Source: an uncultured archaeon
Lineage (GTDB): Archaea; Thermoproteota; Nitrososphaeria; Nitrososphaerales; Gagatemarchaeaceae
Assembly (NCBI GenBank): GCA_963799775.1
Contig: CAWCYD010000003.1
Span: 256,001 to 320,000, forward strand
Direction: 5' to 3'
DNA length: 64,000 bases
A program made the position numbers and the translations under genes. Below the pieces are notes generated by a model. That model had not been told where the DNA came from. It did no database searches and saw nothing but the letters and a program-made list of their open reading frames with translations. This document shows positions 1-19,507 of the stretch, piece by piece; position 1 is the first letter of the stretch; the number at the start of each line of letters is the position of its first letter.

Positions 1-1
1 G

Positions 2-178
2 GAGGTCATAGCGAAGGGCCGAAGCGGCCTCATCGTCCTGCACCCTCTCCCACGCTCCACGGAGCTGCCCTACGAGATCGACTCTGCCAAGTCTGCGGCC
101 TACATGACCCAGGCGCATCTGGGGTGCCCCTCCAGGATGGCCCTCCTCCTGAAGATACTCGGCGGAGGAAGAAACTGA
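2..178 (+). CDS. pyrB: aspartate carbamoyltransferase catalytic subunit, C-terminal part (truncated by window edge)
   Basis: Frame 2 reads EVIAKGRSGLIVLHPLPRSTELPYEID...RMALLLKILG*, with the HPLPR motif; its TGA overlaps the pyrI ATG. Confidence 0.9.
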   Translation, partial: EVIAKGRSGLIVLHPLPRSTELPYEIDSAKSAAYMTQAHLGCPSRMALLLKILGGGRN

Positions 179-693: not shown

Positions 694-700
694 CTAACGG

Positions 701-2378: not shown

Positions 2379-2396
2379 GACATCGCCTCTGGGAAC

Positions 2397-3248: not shown

Positions 3249-4525
3249 GGCGCAGCCCTGGGGTTGTCCCTTCTCTCGAAGACGAAGAGCGTCTGGTCTC
3301 CGAATCTGTTGAACGGGAACTTGTCCGCGAGGGCGGCATCCGCCTTCTCGACCAGGAGCAGCCTCGACCTCAATCTCACGTAGAAGTCGTTCAGGCTCGG
3401 CGGAGGGATGACCGCCGGGAGCGCGGCCATCTTGGTCGTCGAGAAATAGGGCTCGAAGAAGCGTGCGAACTCGCGGGGGGAGTAGTAGTATGCAGGGATG
3501 TCCATCCCCCCGACGGAGACCATTATCGGCTGCCTCTTTCTCGGGGCGAGCGTCCCAAACCTGAACTGGACGGCCCGCGAGAGCGACTCCTCGAGGCAGA
3601 GCCTGTTCCTCACAGAGCAGATGAACAGCCCGCCTGGCTCGAGCAGATTCCAGAGCTCCCGTGCCACGCGGCCCACATCGACCTCGCAGTTCAGGGCGCC
3701 GTTGAGAGAGTAGGCCAGCCTCGCCTTCCCTCCCGGCAGCGCCCCGCTGGCTCGCGCGATCTCGGTCGCCCTCAACTGGATGGCCTCTATCCTTGTGGTC
3801 AGGCCTCTCGCGTCCACCTTTCGTCTCAGGAGCGAGATCATCCCCAGAGAGATATCGGTCGCCACGACCTTCCTGACATGCCTCGAGATGCGGATCGCCT
3901 CCGTCCCTGTGCCGCACCCGATCTCGAGAAGCGTGTCGTCCATGCCCGCCCGGCGGATCACTTCCGCAATCGACCTGTCTCTGGTCCAGACATTGATGAA
4001 ATTCCCCTTTATCGTGAAATCGTATTCCTCAGAGGCCGAGTCGAAAGCGGTGGCTACCGAGTCGAGGTAGTCCGCGCTCTTGGACGTCCATGCCCGAAAG
4101 TCAAGCTTCACGTCGTCCTCTCCCCTGATGGCGCCGCGGAGGGTCGCGGGGCATGTCGGAACCAGGCGCATCGCGCGCGTCGTGGCGCTGGAGTACCAGT
4201 CCTTGACTGTCCTAGCACCGTATTTCTTCGTGTAGAGCCCTCGCATCATCTCACCCTCTGGGGACTCCTCGCAGGAGACCGGCTGCACGTGGTCGCCCAG
4301 CCGGACCTTGGCGACTCGGGAGGCGAGCGCGTTGAGGAACCAATCGGTGTTCGGTGTCCCTGCGAACACGTAGTACGCCCCCTGCGAAATGACGAAGCGC
4401 ATCATAGCGACGTGCGGGATGCCGCTCCTCCTCCCGGTGGTGATCAGCTTCAGCGTCGTCGCGTTCGTTCCCGGAGGGAACTCGCGACCCTGTTCTTGGA
4501 TCGACTCGGCGGCCATCTCAGCCAT
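3245..4525 (-). CDS. fusion of a deazaflavin(F420)-dependent nitroreductase-like domain and a class I SAM methyltransferase
   Basis: N-terminal LITTGRRSG...DWFLN (DDN-type split barrel); C-terminal LEIGCGTG, ATDIS, GALNC, PGG. Confidence 0.8.
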   Translation of the reverse strand: MAEMAAESIQEQGREFPPGTNATTLKLITTGRRSGIPHVAMMRFVISQGAYYVFAGTPNTDWFLNALASRVAKVRLGDHVQPVSCEESPEGEMMRGLYTKKYGARTVKDWYSSATTRAMRLVPTCPATLRGAIRGEDDVKLDFRAWTSKSADYLDSVATAFDSASEEYDFTIKGNFINVWTRDRSIAEVIRRAGMDDTLLEIGCGTGTEAIRISRHVRKVVATDISLGMISLLRRKVDARGLTTRIEAIQLRATEIARASGALPGGKARLAYSLNGALNCEVDVGRVARELWNLLEPGGLFICSVRNRLCLEESLSRAVQFRFGTLAPRKRQPIMVSVGGMDIPAYYYSPREFARFFEPYFSTTKMAALPAVIPPPSLNDFYVRLRSRLLLVEKADAALADKFPFNRFGDQTLFVFERRDNPRAAP

Positions 4526-4526
4526 G

Positions 4527-5493
4527 TCACCGCGAAGAGGATGCGATGTCCAGGTACATCCTTCCTAGGCGCCTATACTTGTTCGACTCGTAGATGCAGT
4601 GGTCTGGCCCTATCCTTGTCTCGAACTCTGACCACCGTCTTCCAAACTTCGCAAACTTTCTGTTCAGCGCCCAGGACTTCATCCTGAGGAAGGAACCCAC
4701 AGTGTGGTAGAGGAGCTGGTTGAGCACTGCGGGACGAGCACCCGCACGCGCGGAGGAGGCGCCCCTCCCCTCCGAGTCCGTCTCCAGCACCCTGATGTCG
4801 TAGAGGGCCGGAAAGTGGACTTTCATCCACTTCGCCTCTTCCAGCAACCCGTGGTATGTCTTCCTGCCTTCGATGAGCTTCACGGTGAGGGCGTCCCTCG
4901 CGAAGATGGGGGTCCTGAGGGGTCCTGAAAGTCCGCTCAGCCCACGCCTCATCCATCTCGAAGCTGAAGCAGAGTTCGGGCACTCCTCTCCTTGACGCCC
5001 TGTATATCCTAGCGAGGAGCAGGCCCTTTAGCATGAACGGCCAGAGGCGGCCTGGCTTGGTCACGCAGAAGTAGTCGATGTCCTCGTCCTCGCTGGCCGT
5101 GAGGTAGGAGTTCGCACCTCCGACCGAGACCAAGAGGGTGCCCTTTGCGAGAAACTTGCCAAAGTCCCTCGCGATCGCTAGGTTTGCTCGGGCCCTCTGC
5201 TTGCTCTTCTCCTCCTCGACGACTATCCTCTTGAGGTCTTTGTCGAGATCCCGCGTCCTCTCAACGACGTAGCCCGACTGCACGACGAACTTGGAGGCCA
5301 GCGAGGGATCCCTCCGGAACGCCTCGTCCAGTTCCTGCTCCCTCGCGTCTATCGGGACCAGTGCGATGAGTTCGCGTAGGGAGATGAGCGCGCCGTTCTC
5401 TCTTGCTATCTGGCAGAACATCCCCACCTCTCGCGCCTGCTTGTCGGTCAGCGTGAGGCTGGTCTCACTGGTCATATCTCTTCCAGATCGCAA
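4527..5493 (-). CDS. nucleotidyltransferase-like protein (frameshift near 4915, probably a sequencing error)
   Basis: GGANSY...DEDIDYFCVTKPGRLW (Pol-beta-type hG-S..DxD); two ORFs join at a GGACC site. Confidence 0.65.
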
Positions 5494-6431
5494 GGTTCTT
5501 GGAAGTCATGGTGTCCCACAGCGCACCGGAGACGGCGATAAGTTCCCCTATCCCCGCCGCTGGCAGCGCCAACACGAGTCTGGGCTTGCCCGCAAGCTCC
5601 CTGATCACTATCTTCAGGCTCGAGGACGGGCTGAAGAACATCATCGTCTCCACCGTGCGGGGGGCCTTGCCCACGAGCCTCTTGACCTGGATGTGCCCGA
5701 AGAGTATCCTCCTCCTCTGGGCAATCAGGTCGACCATCCTCCGGGGGACGTCGATCTGCACTAGCGCGTCCCGTTGGAACCCAACTCTGAAGCCTCTTTC
5801 GCGGATCCTTCCGGCGATGTAGGCCCCGTCGTTGACCACCCCCGGCGGAAGCTGGGGGAGCAGCTTCTTCCTGATTACCATTAACTCGTCGGTCCCGTGG
5901 TTGACCTGGTTCGCGTGCCTCGGGTCGGACGAGAGGAGGTTGAACGATGTCCACATGAGCTCGAGGACGTCTGCGATCAGGCCCTTCGGTTTTTCGAAGA
6001 TCGGCCTCCCCGAGATGAAGCCGAACTTCTCGCCTTGGTCGATGCTCTGGAGGAGGACGGGGATCGACATCGGGTTTATCATCGCGTCGGCGTTGACGTA
6101 GACCAGGTAGTCTCCCTCTGTCTCCCTGAATACCTCGTTTATCGCGTCCGCCTTGCCGGTCCTCGTCTTGTGCTCTATGAGCTTCAATCTCTTGTCCTTG
6201 GCTGCCACCGCCTTCGCGACGCCGAGTGTCTCTTCGGAGCAGTCGCTGGCGACAAGGACGATCTTCGCGAGGATGAAGTTCGGCATCTCGCTGGACAGGA
6301 CTGTGTCTAGCAGGGTCGCCTAGCGCCGGCGGAGTTCCGGTGGCGCAGATCCCGACGGTGTAGGTGCAGGGCCTGTGCTTGCTCGCCTGACCGCTCGCGG
6401 GTGTCGAACTGACCTCCTCGGATTTCTGCAT
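5465..6431 (-). CDS. glycosyltransferase family 2 (frameshift near 6317)
   Basis: TVGICA, GKADAIN, VNAD, VVNDG, QRRR motifs. Confidence 0.85.
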
Positions 6432-6622
6432 TTTTGAGCACCTCTATTCAGATTGCGGCAAACGGGAAGTCTGCCTGCTCTTGAGAATGTCGCTCTTCCG
6501 TCTCATAAGGGTTTGCTCGATGATTTGGGACGAATTTTGAAGAAGCGTTAATACTCGCCTCGACCCGCAACGTTGACTAGTCTCTAGGGAAGCTGCATGT
6601 CCACGGATTCGAAGGGATTGAC

Positions 6623-8220
6623 TTGAGGCAAGGGCTCCGGAGGTTCCTCATCGGTGTCGGCGCGGGCGCGGTGGCGTTGTCAATCTCATTCGTCATCAGG
6701 CTCTACTTCGGGGGTCTCTTCCTCCCCGAGGTCGCGGTGGGGGCGCTTGTGACGAACACGCCCGGCTCGGTGGAGTCCGTCCTCGTCAGCAACCTGCAGT
6801 ATCTGGCAAAGTACTCGGCCCTGACGGGAGCGATAGCGGTCAATCTGGCCCTATACGGGTCCTTGCCTGGTCTCTATCCGGTGTGAGCGGAAGAAGGGGT
6901 TATGGGGATCGTCTTTCGATCTACATGTTCGCGGCATACGGGATCCTCTTCATCATCACTCTCGTCACTCTCACTTTCACGCAGATCCTCAGCTCACCGC
7001 AGCCTATCTCGACGGTCATGTTGACCCTCATCCCGCCCCAGTTCGCCTTCGGCTTGGTCCTGGTGACTGCGGAGAAGTACGCCCCGGTCCAGACGGGCGT
7101 GATCTGCGAGCCACTCAAACCGAAGTCGAGCTCACGCTCGGGGAGGGGCAACAAGCAGAAGTTCGACAGGAGGAGGCGGCTGGTCGATCAGGGCTGGCGC
7201 CGCGACCGCTGTCGCCGGGGTCCTGCTCTACTACGGGGTGAGCCTGCTCTTCCCGAAGGCGAGGCGTGAGAGGACCGAGGCTGTCAGCACGCTCTACGCG
7301 CAGGAGGTCACGCCGAACGAGCCAGTTCTACCGGGTCGACGTCAACATATTCCCTCCGAGCGTCGACTCTAGCACCTGGTCCCTGAGCGTCTCGGGCCTC
7401 GTCGCGAACCCGACGACCCTGACCTACGAGCAGCTCCATGGCCATGCAACCGGTGGAGCAGTACAACACGCTCGAGTGCGTCAGCAACGACGTCGGGGGC
7501 GACCTGATCAGCACGGCGAAGTGGACGGGCGTGAAGCTCGAGGACATCCTGCAGCCAGGCGCAGGGTCAGCCGCAGGCCACCTACGTGGTCTTCAAGGCC
7601 ACCGACGGCTACAGCGTCGGGATACCGATGGAGAAGGCCATGGACTCGACGGGACGATCCTGGCCTACGAGATGAACGGCGAGCCGCTCCCCGCAGGAGC
7701 ACGGGTACCCCGCCCGGCGATAGTCCCCGGATACTACGGGATGATGAACGCAAGTGGATGACGGGCATAGAAGCTGGTCGACGAGACCTACCAGGGATAC
7801 TGGCAGGTCCGCGGATGGGAGAAACGAGGCGCAGTACGAGACGAGCTCCTCCATAGTCGTCACCCCGGGACCGCCCAGGTCGCCGACAGGTTCGGGATCG
7901 CACCGCGCCGTCAGGTCCCGCTGGGTCTGAACGCCCATCGCTGGCGTGGCGTTCGCCGGAGACAGAGGGATAGAGAAGGTCGAGGTCAGCACAGACGGCG
8001 GAAAGACGTGGACGCCAGCCAGCGTGAAAGACCCTCTCTCGGAGTACACCTGGGTGCTCTGGACCGCCGAGTGGAACCCCCCGCCGACGGGGAAGTACTC
8101 GATCGCCGTGCGGGCGACCGACGGGACCGGGCAGGTCCAGACGGCGATCGATGGCCTCGCCCGTTCCCGGGCGGGGCGACGGGCTACAACATCGTCGACG
8201 TCGGCGTCACCTCTGGCTAG
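6623..8220 (+). CDS. membrane-anchored sulfite oxidase-family molybdopterin oxidoreductase (multiple frameshifts)
   Basis: Fragments FYRVD, TLECVSN..GGDLISTAKWTGV, LAYEMNGEPLP, PGYYG, GYWQ, AFAGDRGIEKVEVSTDGG, VRATDGTG. Confidence 0.85.
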
Positions 8221-8224
8221 AGGC

Positions 8225-8506
8225 TCACAGCGTTATCTTCAGCAGGACGGCCAAGCCCACGAACTCGAGCACCGATATCATCGACAGGTAGGGGAGCGCA
8301 GCCTCTCCAAAGAATGGCGCCATAGTCGCGTAGGAGTAGGCAGTAAGCACGCTGTTCGCCAGGAGCAGGATCGCAAAGAACATCAGCCCTACCGAGTGCG
8401 CGGCGTGGCTCCTGGTCGCGATCCCCGCGAAGACCACCAACAGGACGACGAGGAGCGCCGCGTTGAGGACCGAGAAGACAATGGCGACGTCCATCATTGG
8501 GTGCAT
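8225..8506 (-). CDS. small 3-TM membrane protein
   Basis: Hydrophobic 93-aa ORF, divergent from an HTH regulator. Confidence 0.7.
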   Translation of the reverse strand: MHPMMDVAIVFSVLNAALLVVLLVVFAGIATRSHAAHSVGLMFFAILLLANSVLTAYSYATMAPFFGEAALPYLSMISVLEFVGLAVLLKITL

Positions 8507-8604
8507 TATTCAGAAAGCCACCCGTTTTCGGGCCTGCAAAGTATTAAGGATATTTCATATTCTCGGCGCTATGGGTAAATAGCGAGCCAGGAAGTTCAGC
8601 CCTC

Positions 8605-8910
8605 GTGCAGGACAACCAGGACCTGCGCCGTCTTTTGTGGTATCTCCTCGGAGCGACGCGAGGTGGCGAAATGAGAGCCCGGCTCATCCACTCTCTGAAG
8701 GTCCAGCCGGGGAACATGAACCAGCTTGCGAAGCGACTGGGCGTCGAATACAGGACGATCCAGCACCACATAGAGGTCTTGAAGAAGAACTCGCTCGTAA
8801 ACTCCACAGGAGACCACTACGGGCTCACCTACTTCCTGACTCCTTGGTTGGAGGCACACATCGACGTCTTCTACGAGCTGTGCGACAAGCTCAAGTTCAA
8901 ACTTGAATGA
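8605..8910 (+). CDS. ArsR-like winged-helix regulator
   Basis: LLWYLLGATRGG...NQLAKRLGVEYRTIQHHIEVL. Confidence 0.88.
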   Translation: MQDNQDLRRLLWYLLGATRGGEMRARLIHSLKVQPGNMNQLAKRLGVEYRTIQHHIEVLKKNSLVNSTGDHYGLTYFLTPWLEAHIDVFYELCDKLKFKLE

Positions 8911-8978
8911 ATCTCTAGCGAATCTGCAACTGAGTTTGAAATATCGATAAATAGAAAATCCGGCTCAGCGGTTTTCAT

Positions 8979-9527
8979 ATGCAGATCCAAGGCTCCGGCC
9001 GAACCGCGATATCTAACACCGTCTTCGCCGTGACCGTCGTCGTCCTCTTGGTGGTGGCAGCCAGCGGCTTCTTGCTCTATGCGAACAGGTCCCCGATGGA
9101 GGAGACGATGACCGTCACCTCCACGGCCTCGGCGGCGTCGTCGACCCAGACCTCCACAATGTCCAACGAGGCCGTCGCCTTCGCCGCCGTACACGGGCAG
9201 ATGTTCGGGAGCGGCTGGCTGGTCGTCGCGCCTTTGGGCAACGGCGATTACGCCGTGACTGTGCAGGCGACAGGCCTGGAGCCATCGGCCATGGGCAACT
9301 ATATCGTCGAGGCCGCCCAGAAGACAGGGCAGATGGCAAACGTGCCCATCGCGGGCACGAACGACACCCAGAGCGAGTTCGACGCTGATGTCCACGGGAC
9401 CGGGGTCTACTTCACGACCCTCATGGAGAACCCGGCGTCGACCTACGAGAGCGTGTCGCTCGTGTACCTCCCAGGGATGGAGATGCAGAACGCGACCGTC
9501 GTGGCCACCGCGCCTCTCACGATGTAG
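8979..9527 (+). CDS. secreted or membrane-anchored hypothetical protein
   Basis: N-terminal hydrophobic helix after RTAIS, followed by a Ser/Thr linker. Confidence 0.7.
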   Translation: MQIQGSGRTAISNTVFAVTVVVLLVVAASGFLLYANRSPMEETMTVTSTASAASSTQTSTMSNEAVAFAAVHGQMFGSGWLVVAPLGNGDYAVTVQATGLEPSAMGNYIVEAAQKTGQMANVPIAGTNDTQSEFDADVHGTGVYFTTLMENPASTYESVSLVYLPGMEMQNATVVATAPLTM

Positions 9528-9592
9528 AAGCGGGCCGCCCCTTCGAACTTTTAGCCCCACCCGGTCACCCCGAGGCCGTGGAGGCCAGCAAC

Positions 9593-11425
9593 ATGAGCGC
9601 TGACGAGGTCGCCCACAGCCTCAGGCGATACCTCTCGATGAAGTCAGCTTACGCCCCTGACTTCCTGCCGGGCGACAAGAGCGTAGCATACCTCACCGAC
9701 CTCACAGGGGTTCCGCAAATCTGGATGACAGACACCTCGGAGGATCGTGTCCCCCAACAGATCACACTCGAGGACGAGAGGGTCGCCCACTTCAGCGTCG
9801 GGCCGAAGAGCGGCAACATCGTCTTCGGGATGGACAAGGGCGGCAACGAGAGGTTCCAGATCTACATGCTCGAGGACTTGGGCGACTCGGTCGTCAAGCT
9901 GACAGACGACCCCAAAGTGATCCACAACTGGGGGGACTGGTCTCCCGACGAGAAGAGGATATCCTTCTCCTCGAACGCTAGGAGCCAGGAGTTCTTCGAC
10001 ATCTACGTCGAGGACATCGACGACCGTTCCACGGCGCTGGTATACAGATACGACGGGAACGCATACCCCGTGAGTTGGAGTCCCGACGGGTCGAAGATCC
10101 TTCTCGAGGTGACCCACACCCCCTTTGACCATGACCTCTTCCTTCTTGACCCCGACGACAAGAACGCGGAGCTGCTGACGCCTCACACCGGCGATGCGGC
10201 GTTCTACTCCCCCACCTTCGACTGGTCAGGGAAGTTCGTCTACTGCGCCACAGACAAGGACCGGGAGTTCGTGGCTCTCGCAAGAATAGACGTGGGTTCG
10301 CACGAGCTGGAGTATGTCTACGCGGAGGACTGGGACATAGAGGGACTGGTCGCCACGAGAGACAAGAGGACGGTCGCCTTCACCGTGAACGACGGCGGGG
10401 CCTCGAGGCTGATGCTCTGGGGACCTCGGCGGCGGAGTACCGCAGGAATTGAATGCCCCCAGAGGGCTCGTCGGCGGACTGGACTGGTCAAACGACGGGC
10501 GAAGGCTTGCCTTCTCCCTCTCAGCCTCCTCGGCGAACACCGACGTATGGACGTACGATTTCGGACCGAACATGGGATCGACGCGGGGTCAGCTGACCAG
10601 GCTGACCAGGTCCTCCACGTGCGGGATACCGGCGACAAGTTTCGTCGAGCCGCAGCTTGTAGAGACCCGCTCGTTCGACGAGCTGCAGGCCCCTCGTATC
10701 TCTACTTGCCGAAGACAGGTGCCTCGTTGCCCCTCGTCGTCCTCCTCCACGGCGGGCCCGAGTCGCAATTCAGGCCCGGCTTCAGCCCTCTCATCCAGTT
10801 CTTCGTGAGGATGGGTTTCGGCGTGCTCGCACCGAACTTCAGAGGAAGCACGGGATACGGCAGGAGGTACACGCACTTGGACGACGTCAGGGGGAGGATG
10901 GACACCGTCAAAGACGCCGAGTTCGCGGTCCGCCATGTCTTGGAGAGGTATCCCATAGACAGGAACAAGGTGGTGGCCTGGGGCGGCAGCTACGGGGGTT
11001 TCATGGTCTTGGCTTGCCTCTATTCGAGCCCGAAGATGTGGGCGGCAGGAGTGGACATCGTCGGCATATCGAACATCGTCACATTCCTGAAGAACACGGG
11101 ACCTTGGAGGAGGAAGCTCAGGATCGCCGAGTATGGAGACCCAGAGAAGGACAAGGACTTCCTAGAGAGCATCTCCCCGAACAACAACGCACACTTGATC
11201 ACAGCGCCGCTCTTCATTATCCACGGCGCGAACGACCCCAGGGTGCCCGTCGGCGAGGCCGAGCAGATCGCCGAGACTCTCAAGAAGCTGGGAAGAGAGG
11301 CCCACATGATGAGGTTCGACGACGAAGGTCATGGACTCGCGAAACTGAAGAACAGAATCGCTGGGTATTCAGCAGCCGTCGAGTTCCTGATGAGTCACGT
11401 CTCCAGCCAGGGCGAGAAAGCCTAG
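9593..11425 (+). CDS. S9 family peptidase (acylaminoacyl-peptidase-like); compensating frameshifts at about 10420 and 10690
   Basis: Beta-propeller WSPD repeats, HGGPE, GGSYGG, DPRVP, DEGH. Confidence 0.92.
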   Translation: MSADEVAHSLRRYLSMKSAYAPDFLPGDKSVAYLTDLTGVPQIWMTDTSEDRVPQQITLEDERVAHFSVGPKSGNIVFGMDKGGNERFQIYMLEDLGDSVVKLTDDPKVIHNWGDWSPDEKRISFSSNARSQEFFDIYVEDIDDRSTALVYRYDGNAYPVSWSPDGSKILLEVTHTPFDHDLFLLDPDDKNAELLTPHTGDAAFYSPTFDWSGKFVYCATDKDREFVALARIDVGSHELEYVYAEDWDIEGLVATRDKRTVAFTVNDGGASRLMLWGPRRRSTAGIECPQRARRRTGLVKRRAKACLLPLSLLGEHRRMDVRFRTEHGIDAGSADQADQVLHVRDTGDKFRRAAACRDPLVRRAAGPSYLYLPKTGASLPLVVLLHGGPESQFRPGFSPLIQFFVRMGFGVLAPNFRGSTGYGRRYTHLDDVRGRMDTVKDAEFAVRHVLERYPIDRNKVVAWGGSYGGFMVLACLYSSPKMWAAGVDIVGISNIVTFLKNTGPWRRKLRIAEYGDPEKDKDFLESISPNNNAHLITAPLFIIHGANDPRVPVGEAEQIAETLKKLGREAHMMRFDDEGHGLAKLKNRIAGYSAAVEFLMSHVSSQGEKA

Positions 11426-11850
11426 TCCTTCGATATCTTCTCTAGTCGCTGCGACAGGCTCAGAAGGGCTTCTTGGTGTTCCTTCATCTTCGATGGGTCG
11501 GACTTGGCCAAGTCCTCCATGTAAGAGACGAAGCCGCTAACCTCCTCGACCATCTCGTCCAGAGAGCGCTGCTTTCTCCCGAAAGCAGGCCCGAATGACC
11601 ACTCCAACTCGCTGCTTGCCTTGTCCGTAAGCTCGTATCTGCCATCGTCTTTCTTCTTTACCATCCCATCCTTGACGAGCTGCTCGAGCACGGGATAGAC
11701 CGACCCCGGCGAAGGCCTCCACCATCCTTGCGTCATACTCTCGATCTCATCCATCAGCTCCACGCCGTTCTTCGGCGAGGACGCCAGCATGGTGACGATC
11801 GCCATGCGAAGGCCCCGCTTCCTATGCATCATCCATCTGAAAGGCCACAA
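11422..11850 (-). CDS. PadR family transcriptional regulator
   Basis: WRPSPGSVYPVL...YELTDK. Confidence 0.9.
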   Translation of the reverse strand: MWPFRWMMHRKRGLRMAIVTMLASSPKNGVELMDEIESMTQGWWRPSPGSVYPVLEQLVKDGMVKKKDDGRYELTDKASSELEWSFGPAFGRKQRSLDEMVEEVSGFVSYMEDLAKSDPSKMKEHQEALLSLSQRLEKISKD

Positions 11851-11885
11851 ATCGGCATGAAGCCAGAAGGCGAGCTAATAAGGGA

Positions 11886-11913
11886 ATCGGTTTTCCGATA
11901 TCGGTTTTCCGAT
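11886..11913. promoter_or_regulatory. tandem palindromic operator (ATCGG-TTTT-CCGAT)x2, putative PadR site
   Basis: Two abutting identical 14-bp palindromes in the divergent promoter between padR and the SHOCT gene. Confidence 0.6.
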
Positions 11914-11959
11914 ATCTTAAAGAACCCCTGCTTCCATCCAGGTGATTGCGAAACACGGC

Positions 11960-12382
11960 ATGAGCGACGACAACCACAACAACTACGCGACGCCGTCACA
12001 CAGCTTCGGGCAGACTCGTCACAGGCGAGTGGTCATAGGCTGGGTCATCGGCGGGCTGGTCATCCTACTCCTCGCGGGGCTTCTCCTCTCTCCCTTCCTC
12101 TACAACTTCGGTTCACGACCCTTCGGATACTACCCTTTCCCGTTCGTCTTCTTCCCGTTCGGGTTCCTTATCTTCTTCTTTTTCATCTTCTTCGTGATCC
12201 GAGGGGTGTTCTGGGGTTGGGGATGGGGCTGGCGAGGCGGCTATGGTCGTGGCTACTGGCGGGGCCAGGGCTATAACTATGGCGACGCCACTGAGATTCT
12301 CAGGCAACGATACGCGAAGGGCGAGATAAGCAAGGATCAGTTTGACCAGATGATGAGGGACCTGCAGGCATCCAAAGCCTAG
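11960..12382 (+). CDS. SHOCT-domain membrane protein
   Basis: C-terminal ATEILRQRYAKGEISKDQFDQM; two TM segments. Confidence 0.88.
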   Translation: MSDDNHNNYATPSHSFGQTRHRRVVIGWVIGGLVILLLAGLLLSPFLYNFGSRPFGYYPFPFVFFPFGFLIFFFFIFFVIRGVFWGWGWGWRGGYGRGYWRGQGYNYGDATEILRQRYAKGEISKDQFDQMMRDLQASKA

Positions 12383-12464
12383 AGGCCCTCCTCTCCTCTC
12401 TTTTTCTCGAGAGACCATCCGGACAGGCTCGTCTCCCAAGGCACTCAATGTCAATCAGGAGATG

Positions 12465-12493
12465 TGGTGCGGGGGGTGGGATTCTAACCCCAC
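12465..12493 (-). repeat. degenerate intron-less copy of the tRNA-Leu 3' end (att-like scar 1)
   Basis: tggtgcggggggtgggattctaaccccac versus spliced tRNA tggtgcggggggtgggattcgaacccac. Confidence 0.75.
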
Positions 12494-12510
12494 AACCGCT
12501 GAAGGAGGTT

Positions 12511-12612
12511 CTACCTGAACAACCAGCCGAGGACTATGAGTACGACAATTACGATGACAATCGTGCCAAGTAGCCCGTATGCCGGCCTTTTGTTCCGAAA
12601 CGTGAGTGACAT
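12511..12612 (-). CDS. 33-aa single-TM microprotein
   Basis: MSLTFRNKRPAYGLLGTIVIVIVVLIVLGWLFR*; AT-rich TATA-like element about 30-38 nt upstream. Confidence 0.6.
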   Translation of the reverse strand: MSLTFRNKRPAYGLLGTIVIVIVVLIVLGWLFR

Positions 12613-12854
12613 GGTATACGAAGTTCGTGGGGGCCTAAGTGCATTTATCTAGCTTCAAACATAACTTGGATACCTAGCCGAGCTCCATAACCTTCTCCGG
12701 GTGACATCCGAGCGGGAAGCCGGCACGCGGTGGTGGCCCTAGCCGCCAAGACTTCGCCCTTGGGGGTCAACGGAGGACGACTGCTCTCCTGGCGAGCGAG
12801 AATAGGTGGGGTGGGCGGGACTTGCACCCGCTTCGTACTCCAGCTCCACCCTAA

Positions 12855-12893
12855 TGCGGGGGGCGGGATTCGAACTCACGAACCCCTTTAGGG
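12855..12893 (-). repeat. intron-less copy of the tRNA-Leu 3' part (att-like scar 2)
   Basis: tgcggggggcgggattcgaactcacgaacccct has 2 mismatches in 33 nt to the spliced tRNA. Confidence 0.8.
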
Positions 12894-12908
12894 GGTGCTT
12901 GTGTTGAA

Positions 12909-13466
12909 TTATCCCATTTGAGGCATCAATGGTTTGGATGGCTTTGCCAGCCTAAACAAGCCAAATCCCAGCATGCAAGCTCCGCCTAGAAGTCCTGCGG
13001 CTTCGATAATGGTGGCAAGTCCGGAGAAACTCTTGGGGTAAGTGGCGAGCAAGCTGTATGAAATCAAGAGAAGCGCATCCACTGAGAGAACGGCAGAGAA
13101 GGTGCGTCGATCTGGCAGGGCTCTTAGGTCGATTAGACCCAGAATCGCTGTGACAAAAATCACCAAAAGTATCTCGCCCTCTAGGACGTCGATGTGAGAG
13201 TCTTCGACAAGCGCGGCGGCAGATAGGAACATCATCGATAAGATAGAGCCCGAAATATTTTGGCGGTGATGGCCACGCAGTTCCAGGACTCCCAGCGCCC
13301 CCCAGAACCCCCCGAACCCAACGAAGGGAAAAAGCAACAGCAACAATGGGAGGAAGTTGGTGGGTGGTGGTTGCATGGCAAGCTGATAGCTCAAGATGGT
13401 TTCGTAGAATATGTATCCAGCGTACACGAAATACAATCCGGCTAGGCCCACCTGAATGGGCTTCAA
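12909..13466 (-). CDS. hypothetical multi-TM membrane protein (cargo between the tRNA and an att scar)
   Basis: 185-aa hydrophobic ORF, AT-richer than its flanks. Confidence 0.65.
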   Translation of the reverse strand: MKPIQVGLAGLYFVYAGYIFYETILSYQLAMQPPPTNFLPLLLLLFPFVGFGGFWGALGVLELRGHHRQNISGSILSMMFLSAAALVEDSHIDVLEGEILLVIFVTAILGLIDLRALPDRRTFSAVLSVDALLLISYSLLATYPKSFSGLATIIEAAGLLGGACMLGFGLFRLAKPSKPLMPQMG

Positions 13467-13548
13467 GGCCTCGTCTTCAGACCTGTTCGGCTATATTGCT
13501 GTGCCGGCCGGTTTGCGCCTGAAGCTCGAAGCATCCGCTAGGACTGAT

Positions 13549-13689
13549 TGGTGCGGGGGGTGGGATATTCGCCGACCTTGCCCGAGGGTGCTCGCGAGCA
13601 CCCCCTAAGCAGGTTCGGATTCGAACCCACGAACCCCTAAGGGATGGGGCCTAAGCCCCACGCCGTTGACCAGGCTTGGCGACCCCCGC
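13549..13689 (-). tRNA. tRNA-Leu(TAG) with a 54-nt intron at position 59/60 (13566-13619), CCA encoded
   Basis: GCGGGGG/CCCCCGC-type acceptor, anticodon loop CTTAGGC, long variable arm; perfect BHB GGG-TTCG-AAT-CCGA...TCGG-CGAA-TAT-CCC. Confidence 0.95.
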
Positions 13690-13836
13690 TCTTTCATCAC
13701 CCCGGCCGTTTTCTTGGCTTAACAGTTTTCCTAGCCTCTGCGCATCCCGCAGATGGCATCAAGGCCCTCGGAAACGGTTCCCTGCTGGGACTATTCCCGA
13801 AGGGGATAATAACGCCGGAGGACCGACTGATTCAGA

Positions 13837-14811
13837 GTGAGCCTGGCTCAGAACATATTGGACGTGATTGGTAACACCCCAATCGTCAGACTCCAACGGA
13901 TTGCCGAGAAGCCTAGTCCGCGCATCTTCGCCAAGCTCGAGTTCATGAACCCAGGGGGATCTGTCAAGGACCGGATAGCCGCTTTCATCGTCGCGGACGC
14001 AGAGCGACGAGGCGTCCTCAAGAAGGGGGGGACACTTATCGAGCCTACATCTGGGAACACCGGGGTGGGGCTTGCCATCCTTGCGGCCGTCCGTGGCTAC
14101 AAGGCCATCTTCACCATGCCTGACAAGGTAAGCGAGGAAAAGCGCGCCCTGCTGAGAGCTTTCGGGGCCAAGGTCGTCGTCGCACCCACAGATCTGCCGC
14201 CAAGTTCGCCAGACCACTACATCAACGTGGCCAAGAGGCTCAACAAGCAGAATCCGGGTTCGTTCATGCCGAACCAGTACCAGAACAAGGGGAACCCCGA
14301 GGCCCACCGAGCCACGACCGGCCCTGAGATCTGGCGCCAGACCAAAGGCAAGATCGATGCCTTCGTCGCTGGTGTCGGGACAGGTGGGACCATATCGGGC
14401 GCGGGCGGATACCTAAAGTCGAAGAAAAGCTCGTTGCTCGTCGCCGGAGTCGAGCCTCAAGGCTCCATCTACGCGAACCTCAAGTACGGAAAGAAGGAAC
14501 CGCTGCACCCATACCTGGTCGAGGGCGTCGGGGAGGATTTCGTGCCCGAAACCTACGACGAGAGCGTAGTCGATGAGATCATCACGGTCAGCGACGAGGA
14601 GAGCATCTCGATGTCCCACAAACTGGCTAGGGAAGAGGGGATCTTCGCGGGGGGCTCATCCGGCATGGCGGTGGCAGGGGCGTTGGAGCTGGCGCGCCGA
14701 AGGCCCTCCCTGAAGCTCATCGTCGTGATCCTCCCCGACTCTGGGAGGAGCTACCTCAGCAAGATCTACAACCCGCAGTGGCTCAAGGCTCACGGGTTCT
14801 CGCAAGATTAA
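13837..14811 (+). CDS. cystathionine beta-synthase / cysteine synthase family PLP enzyme
   Basis: NPGGSVKDR, EPTSGNTG, GTGGT, GGSSG, LPDSG. Confidence 0.93.
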   Translation: MSLAQNILDVIGNTPIVRLQRIAEKPSPRIFAKLEFMNPGGSVKDRIAAFIVADAERRGVLKKGGTLIEPTSGNTGVGLAILAAVRGYKAIFTMPDKVSEEKRALLRAFGAKVVVAPTDLPPSSPDHYINVAKRLNKQNPGSFMPNQYQNKGNPEAHRATTGPEIWRQTKGKIDAFVAGVGTGGTISGAGGYLKSKKSSLLVAGVEPQGSIYANLKYGKKEPLHPYLVEGVGEDFVPETYDESVVDEIITVSDEESISMSHKLAREEGIFAGGSSGMAVAGALELARRRPSLKLIVVILPDSGRSYLSKIYNPQWLKAHGFSQD

Positions 14812-14837
14812 AGTCACGCTCCAACGCGCCGCCCCTC

Positions 14838-15998
14838 ATGCGGTTCGACACCCGGGCGGTCCACGTTGGGAACGAGCCAGACGAGCTGACCGGAGCGGTG
14901 ACCCCTCCGATTTACACCTCGTCGACCTTCGCCCAGGCGAAGATAGGGCTCACAAAGGGCTACGAGTACTCTAGGTCCGGCAACCCGACCAGGGCGAGGC
15001 TGGAACGGGCCGTGGCCGACCTCGAGGGCGGCAAGTTCGGGCTGGCGTTCGCGTCTGGCCTCGCCGCCGAGACCGCCGTCGCGAGCCTGCTCAACAACGG
15101 CGATCATGTGATAATCTGCAACGACGTCTATGGCGGCACCTTCAGGCTCTTCAACCAGGTCTTCAGGAACTTCGGCGTCTCCTTCGACAGGGTCGACGCG
15201 AGAGACCTAAGCAAACTCGAGCGCGCGGTCAGACCTAACACCAGGATGATCTGGATGGAGTCTCCCACCAACCCATTGATGCTGGTCCTCGACATCGCTG
15301 GCGTAGCAAAGGTGGCGAAGGCACACGGGCTGACCCTTGCGGTGGACAACACCTTTGCCTCTCCCTGTCTCCAGAACCCGCTCAAGCTGGGTGCGACAAT
15401 CGTCGTCCACAGCACGACCAAATACATCGGCGGCCACAGCGACCTCGTGGGCGGCGCTCTTGTCACCTCAGACAAGGCGCTCTTCGAGAGGTTGAAGTTC
15501 CTCCAGAACGCGACCGGGAGCGTCCCTGGCCCGTTCGATTGCTATCTTGCACTCAGGGGCCTCAGGACGATCCACCTCCGGGTAGCCAGGCACTCGAAGA
15601 ACGCAGGGGCTGTCGCAAAGGCCCTAGCGAGCGACCGAGCGAGGGTGAAGGAAGTCTACTATCCGTTCCTCAAGGGATCTCCCTCGTACAAGCTGGCGAG
15701 GAAGCAGATGTCCGCCGGAGGAGGGATGATCGCCTTCAGGATCGTGGGAGGTTATCGAGCGGCGTCGAAGTTCCTAGAGTCCCTGAAGGTCTTCACGCTC
15801 GGTGAGAGTCTGGGAGGGGTAGAGTCACTGGCCGAGCATCCGTCCAAGATGACCCATGCCTCGCTACCGGCCGCCGAACGCAAGAAGATAGGCATCACGG
15901 ACGACCTGATACGCCTATCTGTCGGCATCGAGGACTCTGGCGACCTGGTCGAGGACGTCAGAACCGCTCTGAGAGCCGCGGTCCACACGCAAAGCTGA
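14838..15998 (+). CDS. cystathionine gamma-lyase/synthase
   Basis: YSRSGNPT, ESPTNP, DNTF, HSTTKYIGGHSD, ESLGGVESL. Confidence 0.95.
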   Translation: MRFDTRAVHVGNEPDELTGAVTPPIYTSSTFAQAKIGLTKGYEYSRSGNPTRARLERAVADLEGGKFGLAFASGLAAETAVASLLNNGDHVIICNDVYGGTFRLFNQVFRNFGVSFDRVDARDLSKLERAVRPNTRMIWMESPTNPLMLVLDIAGVAKVAKAHGLTLAVDNTFASPCLQNPLKLGATIVVHSTTKYIGGHSDLVGGALVTSDKALFERLKFLQNATGSVPGPFDCYLALRGLRTIHLRVARHSKNAGAVAKALASDRARVKEVYYPFLKGSPSYKLARKQMSAGGGMIAFRIVGGYRAASKFLESLKVFTLGESLGGVESLAEHPSKMTHASLPAAERKKIGITDDLIRLSVGIEDSGDLVEDVRTALRAAVHTQS

Positions 15999-16182
15999 GT
16001 TTTCCCCTTCTCGGACCCCAGGATTCGAGGGATTTTACAGCAGGAGACGATGGGCAGTTCGGCAACTTAAGACAATCGTCGATTTGCCGCATGGAACGCA
16101 CCCGTATAATGCGTACGGGATGTTCAAGCACTCACAGAACAATGCAACTGGATAACTGCAAGATTTTGAATCTATCGCTCGT

Positions 16183-17017
16183 GGATTCTGTTACGTCTTT
16201 TCTCATGACGCCGCTGGCGCACGACGCGACGGGCTGGCCCTGCTCCACTCCATCGGCTCGGAGGACTTCCTGCGCGGGAACTTGTGAAACCGGCTTTCCG
16301 GTTTGGCGATTTTGGAAGTCCGGAAGGAGGGCCCTCTCTCTGGTGGCCTTCTCGATTAGCTCGCTCCATCCGTTTGTGACCGGGATTCCGGCCTTCTGTG
16401 CCGGTCTCATTCCGTTTATTTGGCGTTCGCGCACGTAGTTGTAATTCACCACGTAGCCGTCTAGGATGTTCTTTGCCGTCTCGTTGTGCTTGAGGCTCCG
16501 CATCGGGCGCGTCCTCTCCTTTAATGTCTCGTGGAGCCTTTCAACGATGTTACTTGTTTGCCTTGCTCTGATTCCGACTCTTTGCACAAATTCGACCTTA
16601 TCGACTTTGTATCGGGAGTAGAACACGCGGTTGAAGGCACTCTGATAGACGTGGCTCCCATCGACGAATACTGCCTTTGGCCTCGTCTTGCTCATGTCCA
16701 GCCCTTTTTGGAAGATTGCGACGGCGTCCTCGAATGTCCTTGACCCTGACAGGTGTGACGCCATCAAGAACTTCGTGTGCTCATCAATCATCTCCCAGAA
16801 CCATTGATCGCGGCCTTCGCACTCGATGACCGTCTCATACTCATGCCATTTCCCTTGGGTTAGGAAGTTTCGCCTTCTGAACTTCCTAAACTGCTAAATC
16901 CGGAACACGGTTTCACAAGTTCCCGCGCAGGAAGTCCTCCGAGCCGATGGAGTGGAGCAGGGCCAGCCCGTCGCGTCGTGCGCCAGCGGCGTCATGAGAA
17001 AAGACGTAACAGAATCC
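16183..17017. mobile_element. 835-bp non-autonomous element with 110-bp perfect TIRs and 6-bp TSD GCTCGT
   Basis: 16183-16292 is the exact reverse complement of 16908-17017; GCTCGT at 16177-16182 and 17018-17023. Confidence 0.85.
16330..16860 (-). pseudogene. IS6-family (archaeal type) DDE transposase fragment
   Basis: GKWHEYET (first D replaced by Y)...WFWEMID...VFVDG...NIVERLHETLKER...YNYVR; N-terminus missing. Confidence 0.8.
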
Positions 17018-17065
17018 GCTCGTAAGAGCCTCAGTCATCCAAAAGATTCACACAATCGTCAGGGG

Positions 17066-17455
17066 CTAGACGGTTTCCGACTGGAGTTTCCTTTCGAGCT
17101 CCTTCTCGGCTGCTCTCGCGCCCTTCACTATTCTTCCCTGTCTCGTAGCGAATCGGTAGTCTAAGGCGGCAACGAGAACTAGCGCCGCCGTTACAAAGAG
17201 CAATGCTAACTCTAGAACGAGAAGACTCGGATCCGTCAGGTTGACTGTTATCACTCCCTCTCCGCTCGCGAACGGGTAGACAATTTGGAAAGCATACGAC
17301 AAGCTCAGGAAGGCTCCGAGGATAACCGTCAAAATCGAGAGCGACCGCATCCTCCTGTGGGTCGTCTCGATATGCTTCGCAAATTCTTCGTGTGCTTCCA
17401 CCAGCGTCGCCCCGGGCGATCTCTCTGCGTCGCTGCCTGTTGACAAGCTCTTCAC
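17066..17455 (-). CDS. hypothetical 2-TM membrane protein
   Basis: 129-aa ORF with two hydrophobic helices. Confidence 0.6.
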   Translation of the reverse strand: MKSLSTGSDAERSPGATLVEAHEEFAKHIETTHRRMRSLSILTVILGAFLSLSYAFQIVYPFASGEGVITVNLTDPSLLVLELALLFVTAALVLVAALDYRFATRQGRIVKGARAAEKELERKLQSETV

Positions 17456-17494
17456 TCGCTCAAAATGGAACCTTAAAGGCTTCCTGACCGGAGG

Positions 17495-17760
17495 TCAGTT
17501 TCACGCCGCTCTCCCACTGGTTCCACAAACTCATGTAATGAGTATAGGCATTGAGCCCTTCCTCCGTGATTCTGTGGATTTCGTGGTCGGCCTCGATGCG
17601 CTTAGCTACCCAACCGTTCGCGTGCATCGGCTCCAGGTCCCCGGCCTAGCCGGCCGTAATTGATGTTGCAGCGCTGAGCAAGCCGCGAGGAATTCATTGG
17701 CCCTTCCTTCAACGCGGCCAATATTTTCATCGCGTTAGCCAACGAGTCCCCGTGGGCCAT
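17495..17760 (-). CDS. archaeal winged-helix regulator (frameshifted or decayed)
   Basis: MKILAALKEGPMNSSRLAQRCNINY, then RITEKG in another frame. Confidence 0.6.
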
Positions 17761-17928
17761 AGTGACCGCTTCGAAAAGGCGGGTTCCCGTCGATAAAAGC
17801 ATGCCAACCAGTGTTTCTACTGACCGAACGTCCGGACCAGGTGTCAGAAATCGTCTATAAGCTGGGGGCGACCTCTCCTCTCATGACTTCGACTTTCGTG
17901 AAGTCGGCGTGGTTGTGAGACTCGCTGC

Positions 17929-18969
17929 TTGACGGATGTTCCTGCGCTAGTTCTCAAAAGTCGCCTTGCAGAATTGATTTCGCGGAGCTCCGCTCTCAGA
18001 CTTGCAGCTGATCCGACGGACCATCGAGCCTGTTGCATTGCTCGGTTCGGCGGAACCCACGCACAAACTCGCGATTGCCCGGCGCGCCTCTTTTGCGAAG
18101 ATGGGGGAATCGTGATACCCACCGGCCTGAGCGATGGCCCTTTTCGAAGACCGCGATCACCTAACTTTCGAATCCCCAGACTCATCCCGCTGGTGAACCC
18201 GCTCGACGAGAGGACATTCGCCCATAGACATCTCGAAGGCGTCTTTCCGATGCTGGCTGTCCAATTATGGAAGATAGTGAGGAGCGGTCCCGCGTACCGT
18301 ACGGCCGTCTCGAAGGGACTGAACCGGATGCTGAGGTTCGATGGGAAGATCTTGATCTCCAGCGTACTGCCGGACGCAGATATCATAGAGAGGGGTGTGG
18401 ACTGGTTCATCGACGCGATTAGGGAGCTGAAACCTGATGCTGTGACGACTTGGGATGTCCCGACCTATTCCGACCATCCTAGGATGGCCTCGCTCAACTG
18501 GATGATGACCGGGCTTGATGCAGCGAGACGGATGTCACTCGAGCTTGACACGCCTCTTATTGGGCTCGCGGCAGGAGCTGACATCCGCCAAGTGGGGTTG
18601 TCATCGTCCTGCTTACGGGCGATGGGTTTCGAGCACCAGGCACTCGCATGCCACGAGTTGCTGGTCGAGAGACGACACCGATACCTGAGATCGTGCGCGG
18701 AATTGGTAAAAAGCAACTGTTCTCACATGACGTTGCTGTCCTGTTCTCATCCAAACCTGTTTGAGAAGTTCAAGATGGCGGACCATTTTGTCGGGATGTC
18801 CTGGTTCAACCAGGCCATCAGGGGACGGCGACCGCGGAGCAGGTCAAACAAGGTTGGTCACGGAAGCAAGGAGACCATCGACTTGACGAGGGAGAATCTG
18901 GTTGAAACCCTCCGCGCTTTACGCGAGTCATTCCCAACTGACCACGAGGAGGCGAACGACACTGGGTAG
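17929..18969 (+). CDS. DUF4417-like / transglycosylase(TGT)-like TIM-barrel protein
   Basis: PDADIIER...DAVTTWDVPTYSDHPRMASLNW...PLIGLAAG resembles the DUF4417 core (D..fE...avlsPDFSlY.DmP...wN); Cys-rich N-terminus; recognised by eye only. Confidence 0.5.
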   Translation: MTDVPALVLKSRLAELISRSSALRLAADPTDHRACCIARFGGTHAQTRDCPARLFCEDGGIVIPTGLSDGPFRRPRSPNFRIPRLIPLVNPLDERTFAHRHLEGVFPMLAVQLWKIVRSGPAYRTAVSKGLNRMLRFDGKILISSVLPDADIIERGVDWFIDAIRELKPDAVTTWDVPTYSDHPRMASLNWMMTGLDAARRMSLELDTPLIGLAAGADIRQVGLSSSCLRAMGFEHQALACHELLVERRHRYLRSCAELVKSNCSHMTLLSCSHPNLFEKFKMADHFVGMSWFNQAIRGRRPRSRSNKVGHGSKETIDLTRENLVETLRALRESFPTDHEEANDTG

Positions 18970-19507
18970 GGGCAATTACTCGTCGCACTTTCCAGGGGCG
19001 AGTCAGACTGCGAACAGTTCGTCTCTTTCCGGTAAGGCAAGTGCCTCGGGTCAAACGATCTTGCCGATTGAAGGGCTCACCAACGACCAGTCTACCTGGA
19101 CAAATCCCGTTCTTGCCACTAAAGACGACGAAATCGTTCTCTATAGGGAGTACGTGCCCGCCATGTGTACTGCATTCGTCTATCAGAGAGAAGGTGGCAG
19201 GATGGAGGTCTACTTTTCTGATATCAAAGGATATCACTCTTTTGTTGCGGATAATGTATTGCCCGACGGACGGCTCGTTGAGAACAAATCGGGACTCGTT
19301 CCTATCGAGGCAAGACGTCAATTTTGGAACTACGTGATGCATATTCAGGAAACCGGAGGCTCGCTCGACCTCAATTTCTTCCGCAGTCCACTCACTGGCA
19401 AGGTGGGACCGACCGCGCCGTTCGCTTCAATCTTAAACGAGGCATCAAGAAGATACAAGATAGACATTCACTTCTTTGACTACGATTGGTGGGAGGAGCT
19501 TCTGTAA
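18962..19507 (+). CDS. hypothetical protein with (M)GRGNYSS leader, Ser-rich linker and globular C-terminal domain
   Basis: SD-like GGAGGCGA at 18948-18955, CTG start at 18962 overlapping the upstream stop. Confidence 0.6.
   Translation: MGRGNYSSHFPGASQTANSSSLSGKASASGQTILPIEGLTNDQSTWTNPVLATKDDEIVLYREYVPAMCTAFVYQREGGRMEVYFSDIKGYHSFVADNVLPDGRLVENKSGLVPIEARRQFWNYVMHIQETGGSLDLNFFRSPLTGKVGPTAPFASILNEASRRYKIDIHFFDYDWWEELL

Follow-up and report, generated by a model that had tools for sequence, protein, structure and literature searches.

A T-loop intron, intron-less copies of the tRNA 3' end and a sequence tie between them at a tRNA-Leu(UAG) gene of an archaeon of the Gagatemarchaeaceae

The stretch of DNA analysed here, 64,000 nucleotides (nt) of an uncultured archaeon of the Gagatemarchaeaceae (contig CAWCYD010000003.1 of assembly GCA_963799775.1, positions 256,001 to 320,000 of the forward strand; the whole of it is called the window), holds a tRNA-Leu(UAG) gene that has an intron in its T-loop and that is followed by two copies of its own 3' end, neither of which has this intron. 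The question raised by this locus is what such intron-less copies record, and whether the intron is older or younger than the DNA that was inserted behind the gene. The answer hinges on one observation: the edge of one of the inserted cassettes recurs, in an inverted copy, as the 5' arm of the intron. It is probable that this is a working tRNA gene at an integration hotspot, that the two copies are scars of the attR type (att, attachment site) and that a recent bulge-helix-bulge (BHB) intron at position 59/60 was born locally from the cassette edge. The genome under study (G000) has a size of 2.47 Mb, in three contigs, with 59% G+C.

The gene is a class II tRNA gene on the minus strand, with the anticodon TAG and its start at 13689. 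Its parts are the following.
13620..13689, minus strand: exon 1, positions 1-59 of tRNA-Leu(UAG), 70 nt, as read from the sequence; 90-99% identity to orthologues.
13653-13651, minus strand: the anticodon TAG; the anticodon loop as assembled is 13655-13650, 6 nt.
13566..13619, minus strand: the intron at 59/60, 54 nt, a strict BHB (hBHBh') motif as judged from folds.
13549..13565, minus strand: exon 2 (positions 60-73) and the encoded CCA, 17 nt, as read from the sequence.

In the minimum-energy fold of the pre-tRNA, the T-stem (GUGGG/CCCAC) is followed by a 3-nt bulge, a 4-bp helix (UUCG/CGAA), a second 3-nt bulge and an intron helix of 20 bp, which has 17 Watson-Crick and three G-U pairs. 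The sequences of the bulges are AAU and UAU. The same bulge-helix-bulge elements are obtained when the T-arm region is folded alone, the centroid and minimum-energy folds agree, and none of 200 shuffled sequences folds as well as the intron region (z = -3.9). As predicted by these folds, the insert is a strict 3-4-3 BHB motif of archaeal splicing, and the T-loop intron of the preliminary description is thereby confirmed. Symmetric cuts in both bulges yield a normal T-loop, which corresponds to position 59/60, and the removal of the intron restores the T-arm and the acceptor stem exactly as in 24 orthologues, the assembled anticodon loop still being 6 nt long. Splicing is plausible when considering this predicted structure; presumably the intron would be removed by the splicing endonuclease of the genome, for which there are two paralogs (PF01974 matches above the cut-off, at C3:491964 and C3:1241691). 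A genome scan finds strict BHB introns at 59/60 in three genes, including tRNA-Leu(UAG). Neither the default mode of ARAGORN nor Rfam at the gathering score finds any tRNA in the window, which is due to the location of the insert within the T-loop. The insert is no assembly quirk, as shown by contigs of public sequencing runs, which match the intron and both of its junctions (13490-13640) as well as 13224-13549 and the first downstream copy with its flanks (12613-12948), in each case with 0 differences. These are DNA contigs from three runs, which possibly derive from the source sample and therefore do not count as independent organisms.

Downstream of the gene, its 3'-end motif is found again at 12465-12487 (one mismatch) and at 12852-12874 (three mismatches), where 0.00 matches are expected by chance. 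Both copies have the same orientation as the tRNA gene and cross position 59/60 without an insert, in agreement with the preliminary description; their full extents are 12893-12855 (copy 1) and 12505-12465 (copy 2). As also described there, each copy closes a short segment with cargo, the two segments being 655 and 349 nt long.
13548-12855, minus strand: cassette A, which holds a gene for a 185-residue membrane protein.
12855..12893, minus strand: copy 1, comprising the variable arm (V-arm), the T-arm and the 3' acceptor strand up to the discriminator, intron-less, with a spoiled T-stem (GTGAG/CCCGC).
12854-12465, minus strand: cassette B, which holds a gene for a 33-residue microprotein.
12465..12505, minus strand: copy 2, from the V-arm to the CCA; its last 20 nt are identical to the gene.
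12452..12464, minus strand: the trailer after copy 2, similar to the one that directly adjoins the intact tRNA of a relative (G006).

The adjacent UAG gene, when spliced, fits both copies slightly better than the two other tRNA-Leu genes that were found in the genome, those for UAA and CAG: copy 1 matches at 35/39 positions (UAA, 32/35; CAG, 34/39), and copy 2 with its trailer at 44/52 (UAA, 34/40; CAG, 36/42). Neither of these two genes is thus a better match for the copies. With the option -i, ARAGORN returns a 'tRNA-Leu(tag) with a 755-nt intron', which is an artefact, since the 5' part has been connected with copy 1 at 12855; it shows, however, the tRNA-likeness of copy 1.

The tRNA-Leu(UAG) locus is an integration hotspot, and the two copies are attR-type scars. 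Five genomes differ in how far the PadR/SHOCT genes lie from the tRNA. This spacer measures approximately 1.0 kb (G013), 1.2 kb (the genome under study), 3.0 kb (G018), 6.4 kb (G022) and 7.6 kb (G006). In five relatives (G022, G017, G011, G021 and G014) arrays are found that are bounded by copies of the tRNA 3' end. Each boundary in these arrays repeats the final 9-16 nt of the tRNA and is often flanked by a conserved arm on either side; the segments, which measure about 0.1-1.7 kb in G022, G017 and G011, carry assorted genes (hydrolases, permeases and unknowns). The claim of integration at the tRNA 3' end is borne out by these comparisons. The earlier statement that two integrations left att scars holds for the scars; it does not hold for whole elements, as the two segments are integrase-less cassettes or remnants. 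The outermost copy is expected to keep the ancestral flank, and the likeness of the trailer of copy 2 to that of G006 therefore fits; this trailer is likely the ancestral 3' flank. It is probable that incoming DNA brought along a tRNA-Leu-like 3'-half arm and recombined with the gene at its final bases, and that each integration displaced the older 3' end and its trailer further downstream, such that two integrase-less single-gene cassettes, A and B, would be what is left.

In three of the relatives (G017, G011 and G018) the tRNA is immediately followed by an 'empty' unit of about 80 nt, which consists of nothing but the two conserved att arms between two 3'-end copies. These units are located as follows, in tRNA-forward coordinates.
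L017, 3716-3800: 'empty' unit.
L018, 2009-2089: 'empty' unit.
L015, 1886-about 1960: 'empty' unit.

Cassette A is found elsewhere too, and its homologues are needed for reading the edge of this cassette.
13467..13548, minus strand: leader of cassette A, with an AT-rich box CAGCAATATAGCC, common to the homologous cassette on metagenome contig L102.
12909..13466, minus strand: ORF A (ORF, open reading frame), a hydrophobic protein of 185 residues, of no known family.

The AT-rich box would be a promoter. ORF A matches no Pfam family and no named cluster of the ESM Atlas (best score 0.86), and it has no homologue in the 22 same-genus genomes, nor in the GTDB representative genomes. With its absence from these 22 genomes, the gene does not belong to a conserved core synteny, in contrast to what would have refuted the preliminary description. 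Nine homologues are found in metagenomes, with 54-84% identity and many invariant residues, and ORF A is therefore a real gene, if a rare one. A terminal ..S-T-P is seen in four of these nine, and the matching DNA word here runs into the V-arm-like start of copy 1. In one homologue (P0009) the stop is read through into a translated tRNA-Leu T-arm and acceptor strand. On contig L102, a homologue of ORF A (61% identity) lies about 95 nt behind a tRNA-Leu(UAA) gene whose T-loop has no intron, and a 3'-end copy comes next. The unit of leader, gene and tRNA-like arm therefore travels as a cassette, which is found at different tRNA-Leu genes in different organisms.

The tie between the intron and the cassette is formed by two segments.
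13597..13617, plus strand: the 5' arm of the intron, an 18/21 copy of the copy-1 boundary, inverted relative to this boundary.
12879..12899, minus strand: the boundary 21-mer, in which the end of the cassette gene (..S-T-P-stop in homologues) passes into the V-arm-like start of copy 1.

The 21 nt that come next to the 5' bulge in the intron repeat, in inverted orientation, the junction at which the gene end of cassette A meets copy 1. The alignment score of the intron arm with the boundary is reached by none of 1000 shuffles, and the seven other comparisons made in the same test are unremarkable. When the genome is searched for the boundary word with up to three mismatches, the intron arm is the only match besides the boundary itself; the same search in 150 other genomes of the order gives five matches, as compared with three for the reversed control. 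Within a limited search of the literature, no report was found of an intron arm copied from an att scar. As the junction word is kept in cassette homologues elsewhere, the cassette is the source and the intron is the copy. The intron would thus have arisen when a cassette of the ORF A kind was already present, or at the earliest together with cassette A, and its origin would be local. What is new here is this 5' arm as an inverted copy of the cassette edge, which links the birth of the intron to the scar.

The word TTCGAA of the T-loop is self-reverse-complementary, and the gene and both copies all contain it. The inverted copy could have been made when a nascent strand switched at TTCGAA to the opposite strand of the nearby copy, or when a recombinase paired the sites head to head; template switching between nearby repeats is our guess for its origin. 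The duplicated CGAA would then supply the 4-bp central helix of the splice motif.

The distribution of the intron points in the same direction. It is absent from all 24 tRNA-Leu(UAG) genes of other genomes that were compared, of which 18 are from the same genus, two from the same family, two from the same order and two from genomes of unknown kinship. These were gathered as 13 loci near the same PALP enzyme gene, nine further genes and two that were reached via an integrase; for four same-genus genomes (G002, G008, G016 and G019), no UAG gene is present in the DNA that was fetched from them. The intron is a lineage-specific gain. A BLAST search of the genome finds no paralogous intron, the matches being short palindromic ones inside coding regions.

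Introns at 59/60 are also seen in tRNA-Ser genes of this genus. The tRNA-Ser(UGA) gene of the genome under study (C2:128496-128652, L104) has a 51-nt intron at this position, which is significantly similar to the tRNA-Ser(GCU) introns of G010 and G009 (0/1000 shuffles). The 59/60 introns of tRNA-Ser(UGA) and tRNA-Ser(GCU) (L104, L108, L114, L118 and L121) are 50-53 nt long in G000, G010 and G009 and 21-23 nt long in G001 and G014, and they are absent from the orthologues of ten same-genus genomes. Such a patchy occurrence is the pattern expected from intron transposition.

A few variant bases hint at the place of the crossover. The att copies on contig L102 and in the read-through of P0009 have ..CCACCTCCCGCA, where the adjacent gene has ..CCACCCCCCGCA, and copy 1 departs from the neighbouring tRNA at two odd bases, A52 and G64. 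Bases that are common to cassettes of different hosts belong to the cassette, and the incoming arm therefore reaches at least as far as the acceptor strand. These bases suggest that the crossover took place in the last few bases of the tRNA gene and that the T-arm part of the copies is incoming DNA. If the T-arm part of a copy is DNA of the element, the missing intron in the copies is no record of an intron-less chromosomal allele, as had been supposed in the preliminary description: an intron-less att copy reflects the arm of the incoming element, not the state of the host gene. With respect to the two options given there, an intron gained later or an intron-less arm with a crossover in exon 2, the copies, as far as they go, favour the second. 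They are silent on the host allele, and the lateness of the intron therefore rests on its absence elsewhere and on the copied cassette edge. In this way the late intron of the first option is also retained, on other evidence than the copies.

Several observations weigh against the proposed sequence of events. No integrase (PF00589) is found among the 22 ORFs of positions 1-19000 of the window, and none among the 28 ORFs of the arrays of the relatives, and consequently no recombinase is tied to the cassettes; the five tyrosine integrases of the genome lie outside positions 1-19000. The comparison of relatives called for earlier, which gave the absence of the intron from the other UAG genes, gave no empty site, since every relative examined has inserts downstream of the tRNA (the shortest spacer being the one of G013). 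The nearest relatives are distant, with at most 78% nucleotide identity in the neighbouring gene; the events are therefore undatable, and the gain of the intron is placed only after that split. The interior of the intron is not significantly similar to the 59/60 introns of the tRNA-Ser genes of the genus (a score as high is reached by 131 to 485 of 1000 shuffles), which leaves the Leu intron unexplained by known intron transposition. Nor is the 3' arm of the intron, when taken alone, significantly similar to copy 1 (264/1000 shuffles). The place of the crossover depends on few variant bases, which later drift could also explain. Finally, the anticodon loop as assembled has 6 nt, as compared with 7 nt in 24 of the 24 other UAG genes, and no sequencing-run contig carries the 1-nt deletion; the sole contigs that cover it have the extra base. 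The flanks of these contigs are different, and they are therefore from other organisms.

An explanation in which the intron is older than the insertions, and in which the cassettes integrate anyway via a crossover within the 17-nt second exon, is unlikely. It corresponds to the second option mentioned above, and it is in agreement with the variant bases, which put the crossover near the 3' end, with the att cores in the arrays of the relatives, which comprise only about 9-16 nt of the 3' acceptor strand, and with the data on Thaumarchaeota, where in the part of the published survey that is considered here 10 of 39 tRNA integrations are in intron-bearing genes, with a median att length of 17 bp (PMC6563490). 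However, the intron arm copies the junction between the end of the cassette A gene and the att copy, which is conserved in cassette homologues elsewhere. If the cassette edge is the source of the arm, the intron cannot predate a cassette of this kind. The intron-less state of the 24 other UAG genes also speaks against an old intron.

It is also improbable that the intron was delivered with the cassette. In this explanation the attP of the element is a long imperfect palindrome centred on the T-loop, the crossover occurs in the T-stem and T-loop, copy 1 is what used to be the 3' end of the gene before it was displaced, and the gene was healed by 'intron plus new exon 2' from the element; such a model was put forward by Sugahara et al. 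2012. Indeed, the two 21-nt arms form inverted repeats that flank G-T-G-R-G-TTCGAATC, which is found at both junctions, and for Caldiarchaeum there is a published model, in the portion of the paper drawn on here, of an attP able to bring an intron (PMC3293823). Nevertheless, the homologous cassette on contig L102 lies behind an intron-less T-loop, with the junction at the 3' end of the gene; the bases A52 and G64 are found in copy 1 together with the cassette-side flank, and not in the gene; and none of the 24 other UAG genes has the intron, including two that carry integrase-bearing elements.

The gene is probably alive. By BLAST and by a pattern scan it is the single UAG gene that is found in the genome, and CUA accounts for 6.3% of 19,763 leucine codons in 379 long ORFs; the pattern scan finds no tRNA-Leu(GAG) and no tRNA-Leu(CAA) in the genome, which may be disrupted or unassembled. 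The 6-nt anticodon loop is probably an assembly indel. In the neighbouring gene of an S9 prolyl-oligopeptidase (9578-11425) the frame is lost near 10420 and is regained near 10700, about 270 nt later, and an ORF at 10449-10808 that overlaps this gene shows the true frame; the change of frame reflects either a pair of assembly indels or a pseudogene. The same-genus genomes that are in few contigs mostly have low completeness scores, which fits indel-rich long-read assemblies. That the gene is dead, its T-loop interrupted by an insertion and its anticodon loop shortened by 1 nt, and that the downstream pieces are decayed tRNA debris without a present role, is very unlikely: the assembled loop of 6 nt and the missing calls by the default mode of ARAGORN and by Rfam would agree with it, but the gene is the sole UAG gene found, CUA codons are used, the insert is an exact splice motif with three G-U pairs in its 20-bp helix, and assembly indels are suggested nearby, by the S9 peptidase gene, and by the low completeness of most few-contig assemblies of the genus.

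The same genome also has an integrase-bearing element at a tRNA-Leu gene. At the beginning of contig C3, one of the five tyrosine integrases is found some 570 nt behind tRNA-Leu(UAA), together with an ATPase with an MCM-type winged helix and a winged helix-turn-helix (wHTH) protein.
G000 C3:1-10657 and C2:367511-387420 (L031, L032): integrated element behind tRNA-Leu(UAA).

Integrases of 92% identity are found in two other genomes behind intron-less tRNA-Leu(UAG) genes, with the same arm adjoining the tRNA. In one of these two genomes the far end of the element, at a distance of 18.4 kb, consists of the conserved arm and CGAATCCCACCCCCCGCA, and the same arm and CGAATCCCACCCCCCGCA core are found near the end of contig C2 of the genome under study. 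This suggests that contigs C2 and C3 abut, in which case the element is about 30 kb long. No close homologue of the integrase is present in the 22 genomes of the genus at E <= 1e-40; its named relatives are in metagenome-assembled genomes labelled Nitrososphaerales and Bathyarchaeia. Behind the far att site of the element there is a segment of about 830 nt with small ORFs (C2:366662-367528, minus strand), which is closed by a conserved att module (GATTTGAACCTAAAGT..CCCCCGCA), the same one that delimits segments behind tRNA-Leu(UAG) in G022, G017 and G011.

The 18-nt att core CGAATCCCACCCCCCGCA of this element extends from T-loop position 56 to the discriminator, and an intron at 59/60 splits it into 4 and 14 nt. 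Since the end of the intron recreates CGAA, the 18-nt core is left with a 2-nt insertion. The split core is suggestive of the old idea that introns shield tRNA genes. As a natural test case for introns that block integration, as which the locus had been proposed, it is anecdotal only. In one genome with a 92%-identical integrase, five tRNA-Leu genes have an identical 3' end; these are all of the five tRNA-Leu isoacceptor genes of G041, on its contig C1 (L077, L079, L081, L083 and L085). Their 3' parts do not differ over about 30 nt, from GGGGTTCG to the discriminator, and they are therefore five equivalent targets for one integrase. Because the five genes share the same 3' end, the choice of UAA by the element is weak evidence, and a redirection of the element to UAA by the intron is counted neither for nor against.

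A relation between this resident element and the cassettes, as carriers of a matching attP were to be looked for, is not apparent. Its arms (TTTACC.GTA.ATTAATGCG and CTATTTTACTGGTAA) are not found in copies 1 and 2, and when mobilisation in trans by the resident element is considered, the att arms differ. Streptococcal cis-mobilizable elements (CIMEs) are flanked by att sites and have no integrase; unlike for these, the resident integrase-bearing element here has att arms that differ from the copies. It is a possible but doubtful generalisation that integration scars give birth to tRNA introns, that the intron closes the gene to the resident element and that the cassettes are integrase-less units moved in trans between tRNA-Leu genes. 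The direct repeats of the 3' half, with their TTCGAA, would allow an inverted template switch or an aberrant recombination, by which a hairpin made from the cassette edge would be planted in the T-loop. If this is true, an intron born from a scar closes tRNA-Leu(UAG) to the genome's own integrase-bearing element. Two old ideas on archaeal tRNA introns, protection from elements and birth from elements, are without direct evidence. In this genome and at this one locus a lineage-specific intron, adjacent scars, a sequence tie and an intact element with an interrupted att core come together, and both ideas therefore become testable.

When compared with known systems, the parts of the locus are ordinary and their combination is unusual, above all the sequence tie between the intron and the scar. 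Sugahara and Fujishima are said to have described non-canonical BHB introns, including those at 59/60, and their transposition between tRNA genes in Thermoproteales. The intron has the strict hBHBh' motif in the T-loop as these have, three such genes being present here, and like transposing BHB introns, related 59/60 introns are patchy in tRNA-Ser(UGA) and tRNA-Ser(GCU) of the genus. Unlike these, the interior of the Leu intron is not significantly similar to the tRNA-Ser family, and one of its arms is the inverted boundary of an att scar. Non-canonical archaeal BHB tRNA introns are also the subject of a review (PMC4090602).

A parallel to a tie of this kind is the tRNA-Thr locus of Caldiarchaeum subterraneum. 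In the sections of Sugahara et al. 2012 that bear on this locus, the tRNA-Thr intron is proposed to have been gained via the attP of an element, and an intron in attB may protect against further invasion (PMC3293823). As there, a tRNA fragment, inserted DNA and a new intron are found together, and the intron is tied to att DNA of a mobile element. According to the same sections, in Caldiarchaeum the 5' part of the gene is duplicated and a recombinase gene is present, whereas here the 3' part is duplicated and there is no recombinase; and the intron is proposed to come with attP, whereas here the cassette of contig L102 lies behind an intron-less T-loop. The Leu intron therefore looks like a secondary, local event.

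Elements of Thaumarchaeota, as far as they are covered by the part of Krupovic et al. 2019 used here (PMC6563490), have short att sites, re-use their sites and are also integrated in intron-bearing tRNA genes. The targeting of the 3' end, the short att sites, the tandem re-use of the site and the many cryptic elements are shared with the present locus, and its units, of 0.35-0.7 kb with one gene and no integrase, are unlike the elements in that portion of the survey in being far smaller. The tycheposon islands of Prochlorococcus are, in the excerpt of the preprint that is referred to (10.1101/2020.12.28.424599), arrays of remnants with partial tRNAs. Here as there, older inserts are shifted away from the tRNA by newer ones, the borders are marked by partial tRNA copies and the leftovers consist of cargo only, with the difference, against this excerpt, of an archaeal host.

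The cargo of the cassettes is accessory, and that of cassette B is the following.
12511..12612, minus strand: gene of a 33-residue single-pass membrane microprotein, with an upstream region conserved to about 12680.

Four copies of the microprotein gene and its upstream region, with 69-78% nucleotide identity, occur in G001 and G002; none of them is adjacent to tRNA-like sequence or located at the tRNA-Leu(UAG) site. The gene is a member of a small multi-copy family of the genus. In G001, two tandem microprotein genes with the conserved upstream box are seen on contig C53 (L028, at about 3050-3230 and 3490-3660).

A further tRNA-like structure is present in cassette B.
12806..12851, minus strand: minihelix resembling an acceptor stem plus T-arm, directly after copy 1 (GGGTGG..GCGGG-TGCAAGT-CCCGC-CCACCC).

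No tRNA that matches this minihelix is found in the genome. On the other side of the locus, 2.4 kb upstream of tRNA-Leu(UAG), there is a DDE transposase of the IS240/IS6 type (16132-16791, minus strand). When considering the whole genome, six tRNA matches of Rfam span only the model positions 8/9/10-63, which is a hint that more tRNA genes are disrupted near their ends.

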